Positions 6,542 through 7,353 are shown, counted from the first letter of the stretch. The stretch: DNA of 8,569 bases from a virus (IMGVR_UViG_2617270947_000002), one strand, 5' to 3'. Notes: generated by a model not told the origin, from the letters alone. Translations and numbers: made by a program.

Positions 6542-6964
6542 ATGAGTAGAAATAACGAAACAAGCGGCGTTGAACTGGTTGTCGTCGGCGTATTTGCTTT
6601 CTGTCTGGCAGTTGTTGCCTGGCTAATGAAAACTTTCGATGTTGAATGGCAAACAGCACTGGAAACTGCGCCTGGCCTGATAGTCTGGCTGCTTGTTGTT
6701 GGGGCGGGGGTCTTTTTCGGGATCAAAATGGAAACAGGTCTTGTTCGCTGGGGTGCTCCACTGGCGATCGCCCTTCTGATTCCGGTATTCAAACCAATTA
6801 TTAAGGAAGCGGCCGGAGTTCGTGAAATGGGCGGATTGGTTTTCGATGATATGGTTTCGTGGTACGGAACTGGCTGGGGAATGTCTCTGATGTTCTTCGG
6901 GATTCTTATCGTCGGATACGGTCTGCTTTATTGGTGGCACAGAAGGAATTCATATTACTGGTAA
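6542..6964 (+). CDS. Small integral membrane protein, 140 aa, about 4 predicted TM helices; prophage cargo, function unknown
   Basis: AGGA-containing RBS upstream; hydrophobic stretches VELVVVGVFAFCLAVVAWLM, GLIVWLLVVGAGVFFGI, WGAPLAIALLIPVF, GMSLMFFGILIVGYGLLYWW; no motif I recognise. Confidence 0.65.
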   Translation: MSRNNETSGVELVVVGVFAFCLAVVAWLMKTFDVEWQTALETAPGLIVWLLVVGAGVFFGIKMETGLVRWGAPLAIALLIPVFKPIIKEAAGVREMGGLVFDDMVSWYGTGWGMSLMFFGILIVGYGLLYWWHRRNSYYW

Positions 6965-7020
6965 TAATATTTTACCGAATCGAGCTGATGGAAAATCGCC
7001 TTAAACAGGAGTCAATTTAA

Positions 7021-7353
7021 ATGGCAAAAAAATCAAGGGTTTATGGGATAAGAGTTAGAACGGCTCAAGATGGCGAATTTATCTATGGAAAGCCTGTTCC
7101 GGGTATGAGTAAGGTACATGTATTCAATGAGGTTAATAGCCAATTAATGGCTGTATTGGAAGTGAAATATCTTGGCTGGTATGACATTACTCTATCCGCA
7201 AATAGTTCGACAGATTATTATTTCGAACTAACTTCCAAGAAGAAAGGAAATACTTATATATTTGAACCCGGTGATTTCGGCTGGAATCATTTAAATTATC
7301 AGTTCCAGCAAGATGTTGATGAAATGGTTGAGTTTATGGATTCGGATTATTAA
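7021..7353 (+). CDS. Hypothetical soluble protein, 110 aa, acidic C-terminus; prophage cargo, function unknown
   Basis: RBS AGGAG 9 nt before the ATG; 56 bp downstream of the membrane-protein gene on the same strand (likely co-transcribed); followed by a strong terminator. Confidence 0.6.
   Translation: MAKKSRVYGIRVRTAQDGEFIYGKPVPGMSKVHVFNEVNSQLMAVLEVKYLGWYDITLSANSSTDYYFELTSKKKGNTYIFEPGDFGWNHLNYQFQQDVDEMVEFMDSDY

Follow-up and report, generated by a model that had tools for sequence, protein, structure and literature searches.

A variable cargo slot between a four-transmembrane gene and attP at the accessory end of a CUS-1/YpfPhi-type filamentous prophage

The filamentous phages YpfPhi, found in Yersinia pestis, and CUS-1, found in Escherichia coli K1, belong to one family that integrates at dif, and these prophages have been linked to infection fitness (PMC4266046). 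In each of them, two open reading frames (ORFs) adjacent to attL lie beside an rstR-like regulator gene, YPO2271/YPO2272 in YpfPhi and orf1/orf1a in CUS-1; the two sets are unrelated, and no function is known for these end genes (PMC4266046). Furthermore, the dif-integrating inoviruses of Vibrio possess an accessory hotspot, also called the 'phage hypervariable region' (pHVR) (PMC11630473, ISME J 2024; PMC12715192, Commun Biol 2025). Here, we analysed a stretch of 8,569 nucleotides (nt) from the virus IMGVR_UViG_2617270947_000002, hereafter called the window, with the focus on the interval 6542-7353, which holds two plus-strand genes, ORF1 and ORF2. This interval forms the accessory end of a filamentous prophage of the CUS-1/YpfPhi type, which Xer recombination inserted at dif beside hipA. 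A first-pass annotation had described the two genes as one cargo cassette. In the explanation that we favour, with a probability of roughly 0.5, they are two independent genes, ORF1 being a conserved flank and ORF2 a cargo, and do not constitute one system. The features concerned are the following.

6542-6964, plus strand: ORF1, a 140-residue protein with four transmembrane (TM) segments
6965-7364, plus strand: variable cargo slot, 400 nt here, with ORF2 as its sole gene
7021-7353, plus strand: ORF2, a 110-residue soluble protein with an acidic tail
7366-7459, strand not assigned: phage attachment site (attP) region and prophage junction

The slot was surveyed in 37 ORF1 loci from E. coli genomes, species-representative genomes and IMG/VR. 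In DNA alignments of all aligned variants, homology on the left ends about 8 nt past the ORF1 stop codon and on the right starts at TTGGTTCGCACAATG (position 7365, the start of attP), and the sequence of the attP region is kept in every one of them. Between these borders, the slot of related phages measures up to about 1.2 kb, with one to three unrelated genes in it. At least 10 unrelated contents follow ORF1 among the 37 loci, the window having the shortest cargo found, and the top 60 E. coli records gave the same mixture. The contents are listed below, with locus labels (L) from our survey.

ORF2 alone: this window, L001 and L020
117-residue one-TM protein and an ORF2 homologue: E. coli K-15KW01 and Rosenbergiella
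91-residue ECs_2282 zinc-ribbon protein and 159-residue one-TM protein: nine loci
264-residue DpnII-MboI nuclease (PF18742 E=7e-59; PADLOC Aga_Helical-REase 1e-34) and DUF6953 protein: five loci
369-residue TM protein: UTI89 type
368-residue CAP12/Pycsar-type TIR protein (PF10137 4.5e-20; PDC-S35): L038
309-residue AbiJ_NTD4+DUF7014 protein (AbiJ_NTD4 9e-27; PDC-S32): four loci
321-residue protein of unknown function: L014
89-101-residue protein and 240-residue TM protein: L011 and L042
155-residue and 123-residue proteins: L031 and L035
98-residue and 262-residue proteins: L032 and L034

Defence domains recur among these genes in Pfam and PADLOC (nuclease, TIR and AbiJ-like), as judged without an enrichment statistic; the earlier suggestion that this end carries defence functions is borne out by the nuclease, TIR and AbiJ modules of the related phages. 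The survey shows that the slot, between the four-TM gene and attP, is an exchangeable cargo locus that holds mostly defence-type modules. Its contents are probably exchanged by recombination through the shared flanks.

This locus shares several properties with the Vibrio pHVR. In both cases, a small temperate dif-integrated inovirus carries one locus near its regulator/att end with contents that differ between close relatives and are enriched in defence systems, TM proteins and unknowns, and homologous flanks allow exchange. As in a hotspot, the locus here is fixed, bounded by conserved sequence and variable in content, with defence domains present. The host belongs to the Enterobacterales and the lineage is CUS-1/YpfPhi-like, unlike the Vibrio phages. 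Moreover, the Vibrio CTX-I region is situated between zot and xafT, whereas the slot is situated between the four-TM gene and attP, downstream of the regulator. A xafT-type flank was not found, as the regulator, ORF1 and ORF2 had no XafT/DUF3653-like match in Pfam or NCBIfam. Compared with the description of YpfPhi and CUS-1, family and position are the same, but that description concerned two phages only, while here at least 10 contents are found and ORF1 is constant in most. P2-like phages and P4-like satellites reportedly hold interchangeable anti-phage systems at fixed positions bounded by conserved genes (Rousset et al. 2022, cited in PMC11630473). Those elements, tailed phages or satellites, encode an integrase and have other flank genes, whereas a 7-9 kb filamentous phage that uses the host XerCD is concerned here. 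Literature searches gave no description of a hotspot in E. coli or Enterobacterales inoviruses and no mention of DUF6953. Defence-enriched inovirus hotspots are already known in Vibrio (PMC11630473, PMC12715192), and the present locus extends this pattern to Enterobacterales. An exchangeable slot with nuclease, TIR, AbiJ-like and membrane modules suggests a tangible reason for the retention of such small prophages: at the chromosomal dif site, they would carry genes directed against phages or plasmids. In addition, two testable candidates are singled out: the four-TM ORF1 and the widespread unannotated ORF2 family, which occurs beside Shedu, SIR2 and restriction-fold nucleases.

The conserved phage gene ORF1 makes up the constant left flank of the variable slot. 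Across the 37 loci, ORF1 is 86-99% identical; the regulators at these loci are 40% identical or undetectable (three regulator types), the secretins are 26-100% identical, and some loci lack Rep. Among 5426 complete E. coli genomes, 127 (~2%) contain ORF1 DNA, including UTI89, NC101 and F11, versus only 4 for ORF2, so that the two genes are not co-inherited and the notion of a two-gene cassette does not hold. A scan of genome contigs gave only 6 ORF1 loci. All homologues (n=49) come from Enterobacterales where the source is named. A homologue with 38% identity also adjoins inovirus Zot and secretin genes. Via UTI89, ORF1 probably corresponds to orf1 or orf1a of CUS-1.

The other basic properties of ORF1 agreed with the first-pass annotation. 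Kyte-Doolittle hydropathy places four hydrophobic segments at residues ~11-29, 44-61, 69-85 and 112-131, and the AlphaFold2 (AF2) model has helices at residues 4-32, 36-62, 67-90 and 111-137, with a modest mean pLDDT (predicted local distance difference test score) of 67. The motif AAGGA at 6529-6533, read from the sequence, lies at normal spacing for a ribosome-binding site. The ratio of nonsynonymous to synonymous substitutions (dN/dS), calculated against homologues 60-97% identical in DNA, is 0.06-0.15 for ORF1, rising to 0.24 against the most distant, 50%-identical Mixta homologue. For ORF2, it is 0.03-0.11. Since dN/dS is low against the homologues, both ORFs are real genes, kept under strong purifying selection. 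The full length of ORF1 (residues 1-140) aligns with positions 1-140 of the 140-position profile of phrog_4174 (E=8.4e-85), a family annotated as of unknown function. This was the sole match, as Pfam, NCBIfam, PADLOC and PHROGs returned no named family. Searches of a phage GenBank collection gave neither DNA nor protein matches for either gene, sequence-profile searches against the PDB were empty, and the ORF1 AF2 model had no structural match in BFVD. RefSeq lists both genes as hypothetical proteins in near-identical prophages.

Two atypical ORF1 homologues were also observed. In Mixta intestinalis (L007 8001-8411), the 50%-identical homologue stands alone near glutaminase and Hcp genes, with no phage gene detected within 8 kb, and may be a prophage relic. 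A predicted protein of 166 residues (P0033) combines half of ORF1, its first, with a DpnII-MboI (PF18742) segment (ORF1 part: 91% identity, 49% of the query covered), which hints that one of the contigs has a junction within ORF1 produced by recombination or deletion.

ORF2 has an isoelectric point of 5.0, no hydrophobic segment and six acidic residues among its last 15, ending in ...MDSDY. Its ribosome-binding motif, AGGAG at 7007-7011, is at normal spacing on direct reading, so that good ribosome-binding sites were correctly assigned to both genes. A word-indexed search retrieved only five ORF2 clusters with 64-93% identity, among them E. coli, Pectobacterium parvum and Providencia heimbachae. 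When 1.84 billion representatives were searched exhaustively with a HMMER profile, 25 proteins were retrieved, including about 18 further ORF2 relatives of 100-142 residues. The N-terminus (MAKKARFY) hardly varies across the alignment of 22 sequences, which also contains the motifs GW and G(W/Y)xYLxxQF. Judged by these sequences, ORF2 represents an unannotated family of 100-118-residue proteins. ORF2 and its family members had no match in Pfam or PHROGs, and ORF2 had none above cut-off in NCBIfam or PADLOC. Weak matches to DUF2846, MBG_2, PADLOC REase_II (E=0.003) and phrog_10607 were all far under the cut-offs and were discarded. The earlier statement that neither protein is recognisable was upheld, and remote-homology searches assigned no known or housekeeping family to either. 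The hhalign probabilities of ORF2 with the DUF6953 protein, the ECs_2282 zinc ribbon and the 89-123-residue slot proteins were all <=2.6%, indicating that these are unrelated.

At codons 2-4 of ORF2, a run of seven A occurs at 7025-7031 (GCAAAAAAATC). Because the AKK residues are conserved across the family at the protein level, this run is probably not a phase-variation tract. The acidic tail (7309-7353) ends in D-Y, and in many family members, the last two residues are likewise an acidic one and then Y or F. Bacterial single-stranded DNA-binding protein (SSB) recruits partner proteins through an acidic, aromatic-ended C-terminal tip, which the ORF2 tail resembles.

ORF2 relatives were found in inoviruses, plasmids, islands and a prophage. 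In four inovirus lineages, i.e., the present one, Providencia (Rep_trans type), Pectobacterium colocasium and L058, an ORF2-like gene is the last before the att end. The gene upstream of the Providencia relative encodes a DpnII-MboI nuclease that is 47% identical to the E. coli slot nuclease, and in Pectobacterium and a Pantoea island, a full-length SduA/Shedu gene (PADLOC 4e-102) takes this place. Other upstream genes encode a SIR2 protein, a 202-residue protein with only a weak, precomputed Pfam match to Mrr_cat and no PADLOC match, and unknown proteins. A 117-residue one-TM protein is found directly upstream of ORF2 homologues in three genera, once without ORF1, and in one plasmid context, a 78-residue two-TM protein follows the ORF2 relative. 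No common (receiver) domain was found among the upstream genes. ORF2 relatives that are 65-85% identical have unlike neighbours: SIR2 versus the Mrr_cat-like protein, SduA versus a winged helix-turn-helix protein, and the one-TM protein versus a 158-residue unknown. The neighbours of ORF2 relatives thereby turn over faster than the ORF2 proteins themselves, in surveys of modest size (a metagenome scan gave only 5 ORF2-type loci). The different neighbours of close relatives speak against a specific link to ORF1 of the toxin/immunity or sensor/effector kind. On a Pantoea plasmid, the neighbours include SMI1/KNR4 and DUF1795 proteins, so that an immunity role in a polymorphic-toxin system was considered; it was rejected because the partners do not co-vary with ORF2.

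Several individual arrangements were recorded among these relatives. The module of a 117-residue protein (one N-terminal TM segment) and an ORF2 homologue 11-19 nt further on is present in E. coli K-15KW01, Rosenbergiella gaditana and Pectobacterium parvum (L017 300-1057, L012 6376-7141 and L057 443-1141). In P. parvum, it lies directly after a small regulator-like gene related to the Providencia inovirus regulator, with no ORF1. Behind the DpnII-MboI-type nuclease, the ORF2 homologue follows in P. heimbachae (L005 7170-8348; 47% nuclease identity), while a DUF6953 protein follows instead in E. coli VR50 (L004 4579-5650). By hhalign, these two small partners have no relation to each other. In another ORF2 branch, four contigs carry a conserved ~120-residue zinc-ribbon protein (CxxC...CxxC and GVFIRK motifs) 14-33 nt downstream of the ORF2-like gene (L054 6001-6726, L065 3980-4740, L066 713-1434 and L067 652-1374). 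The zinc-ribbon partner in L054 gave neither a Pfam match above cut-off nor a PADLOC match.

On the plus strand, the lysogeny-side genes are the regulator followed by ORF1 and ORF2, opposite in strand to the morphogenesis and replication genes, as annotated before. In the favoured explanation, ORF1, assumed to be made in the lysogen, would act at the inner membrane, where blocking the entry of, or superinfection by, related filamentous phages is the role that we favour by analogy. A lysogen-expressed membrane function is proposed because of the regulator's strand, the small size, the inner-membrane location and the restriction to inoviruses. PfsE of the Pseudomonas Pf phages, a protein of about 30 residues with one TM segment and an aromatic-rich conserved motif, confers superinfection exclusion by acting on PilC of the type IV pilus. 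ORF1 is likewise a small inner-membrane protein of a temperate inovirus, and the likeness is confined to size class, location and gene position, given that ORF1 has 140 residues and four TM segments. ORF2 would be a conflict-related protein, active by itself or with partners that are loosely interchangeable, and would aid the lysogen when phages or other mobile elements arrive. This role without a fixed partner is suggested because the family keeps company with defence genes and hotspots, occurs on several kinds of mobile elements and changes partners. The role of ORF2 could be one in defence or in counter-defence.

The dedicated membrane-plus-soluble pair of the first-pass annotation corresponds to a two-component exclusion or abortive-infection system with ORF2 as the sensor and ORF1 as the membrane effector. 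The genes are indeed neighbours on one strand, separated by a 56-nt spacer without a terminator, and each has a ribosome-binding site. The closest ORF2 relatives also follow a small membrane protein, the 117-residue one-TM protein in three genera, and with the plasmid-borne two-TM protein in mind, ORF2-type proteins may generally act with membrane partners, a role that ORF1 could fill here. However, ORF1 occurs with at least 10 other modules, several of which bring effectors of their own (TIR, nuclease, AbiJ), and with three regulator types; relatives of ORF2 are found where ORF1 is missing; and the combination of ORF1 and ORF2 lacking the 117-residue gene was seen in just 3 complete E. coli genomes and 1 viral contig. 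There is neither joint inheritance of ORF1 and ORF2 nor co-variation of ORF2 with a partner. Kiwa also has two genes, a four-TM membrane protein (KwaA) and then a soluble protein (KwaB). KwaB is about three times as long as ORF2. Unlike in Kiwa, ORF1 and ORF2 are not co-inherited, no PADLOC model for it matched either protein, and DUF4868 was not found in Pfam. PADLOC as a whole returned nothing for ORF1 and the sub-threshold REase_II hit for ORF2. The co-occurrence data have weakened the pair model, and we consider it quite unlikely. A broader version, in which the ORF2 family is a common small subunit of modular two-gene defence systems with interchangeable effectors, seems doubtful to us. 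The effectors would be small TM proteins, DpnII/MboI, Shedu, possibly Mrr nucleases, SIR2 NADases and the ~120-residue zinc-ribbon protein, and ORF2 here would use ORF1 as its effector or act alone. As for Shedu, the window holds no SduA gene with the DUF4263/SduA_C nuclease domain, and SduA is merely a neighbour of distant ORF2 relatives in Pectobacterium and Pantoea.

ORF2 might instead serve the mobile element itself as a counter-defence or host-modulating protein that inhibits a host nuclease, restriction or NADase, or mimics a host tail. It is small, acidic, apparently non-enzymatic and stand-alone, it stays while its neighbours change, and its family is carried by several mobile elements, including conjugative IncF plasmids and a TraD/MobA plasmid region; in Vibrio, a few counter-defence genes were found among the defence genes of prophage accessory loci (PMC11630473). 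On the other hand, ORF2 shares its strand with the regulator, and lysogens are expected to express that side, its relatives often follow a defence effector by 11-60 nt as if in one operon, and it is similar to no known protein in sequence and structure searches, none of which was aimed at anti-defence proteins. We regard this role as rather unlikely. Finally, ORF2 could be an orphan with little or no function here, left after the loss of its true partner, the 117-residue one-TM gene. The module of these two genes does occur in three genera and moves independently of ORF1, and the cargo of the window is the shortest one. Moreover, a reading frame in the spacer ends in ...IELMENRLKQESI, resembling the C-terminus ...IESMRNDLSK of the 117-residue protein. 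This resemblance is not significant, however, since 188-262 of 1000 shuffles score equally well and the DNA alignment falls below the shuffle mean, and the 56-nt spacer was rejected as a relic of that gene. In addition, ORF2 is intact with a good ribosome-binding site, the ORF1-ORF2 arrangement is kept in at least 4 separate records, and the comparison with the K-15KW01 allele (dS 1.35, dN/dS 0.03) indicates that ORF2 stayed under selection over a long divergence. An orphan is thus very unlikely.

Several observations weigh against two independent genes with a conserved flank and a conflict-related cargo. A recognisable defence effector lies upstream in about 4 or 5 of about 15 independent ORF2-family contexts; a Salmonella IncF plasmid, a Pantoea plasmid and an SRAP/UmuC neighbourhood have no defence-like neighbours. 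The promoter scan found no plus-strand sigma-70-like promoter between the regulator gene and ORF1. Exclusion, the most likely role for ORF1, is proposed purely by analogy with small inner-membrane proteins, for a gene in a lysogeny-side operon. For both proteins, the searches yielded no family (beyond phrog_4174 for ORF1), fold match or catalytic motif, and the ORF2 AF2 prediction is shallow, being confident in one of five models only. Furthermore, E. coli DLI.6n (L002) has the regulator of this window at 99%, but both ORF1 and the cargo are swapped out. As ORF1 is replaced there, it is dispensable for the phage and could count as a long-lived cargo. In a DNA comparison with this YpfPhi-like prophage type, homology to the window stops at the hairpin at ~6470-6500 and resumes at 7365. 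The alternative content (L002 3739-4502) consists of a 132-residue protein with a GYGYGYSY stretch and a 120-residue multi-TM membrane protein, neither with a family match save a weak one to DUF4177, and may be of the YpfPhi YPO2271/2272 type. The latter membrane protein showed no remote homology to ORF1 (hhalign probability <=2.6%).

The right border of the slot adjoins the attP region. Two inverted dif-like sites, at 7366-7392 (plus strand) and 7432-7459 (minus strand), enclose a GC-rich hairpin at 7394-7430, and the first 15 bases of the latter site exactly match what we take to be the E. coli dif sequence. Folded as single-stranded DNA, 7362-7475 forms a forked hairpin of ~100 nt (-29.3 kcal/mol, z = -6.45), the stability of which was reached by 0 of 200 shuffles. 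The hairpin at 7394-7430 is the tip of this structure, built from the two inverted sites, and the whole is presumably comparable to the CTXphi-type attP used by XerCD. Given this attP architecture of dif-like sites and forked hairpin, the prophage ends at ~7459, just past ORF2, and the att-proximal position given in the first-pass annotation is correct. Its view that the genes are bracketed by terminators was right on one side only. Upstream, the hairpin at 6470-6500 is terminator-like, although reported by the scan on the minus strand; downstream, the hairpin at 7394-7430 was missed by the terminator scan and is part of attP.

The remainder of the window contains, on the minus strand, a complete inovirus gene set according to gene calls, Pfam and PHROGs, as well as the regulator and a chromosomal gene.

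1-1359, minus strand: secretin (Pfam/PHROGs)
1274-2368, minus strand: Zot/pI-like protein (Pfam/PHROGs)
Also on the minus strand: pVI-like gene, pIII-like gene and major coat protein
4452-4769, minus strand: single-stranded DNA-binding protein
4781-5833, minus strand: Rep protein with Phage_CRI and G2P_X_C domains
6001-6453, plus strand: helix-turn-helix (Xre/Cro-type) regulator, the rstR-position gene (phrog_3557 'transcriptional regulator', E=1.4e-68)
6470-6500, reported on the minus strand by the terminator scan: palindromic, terminator-like hairpin after the regulator gene, with a 14-pair stem and a 3-nt loop
7536-8569, minus strand: chromosomal hipA beside dif, outside the phage (Pfam HipA_C E=3e-52)

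The Pfam HTH_3 match of the regulator is weak (E=7e-4), and in near-identical prophages, RefSeq lists a 453-nt transcriptional regulator at the same place. Such prophages adjoin hipA/hipB in many E. coli chromosomes. Compared with the intact hipA of locus L001, the hipA of the window has a 289-bp internal deletion at 8464/8465, so that an N-terminal ORF of 41 codons and a remainder of 313 codons are left; the end of the window coincides exactly with the hipA start codon. A 113-residue ORF at 7451-7792 (plus strand) is antisense to hipA, spans the prophage junction and is most likely spurious. In E. coli ERP001 (L001 3781-9554), two tandem copies of the Rep-regulator-ORF1-ORF2 block are separated by a 246-nt hypothetical gene, an arrangement consistent with tandem or partial phage re-integration at dif.

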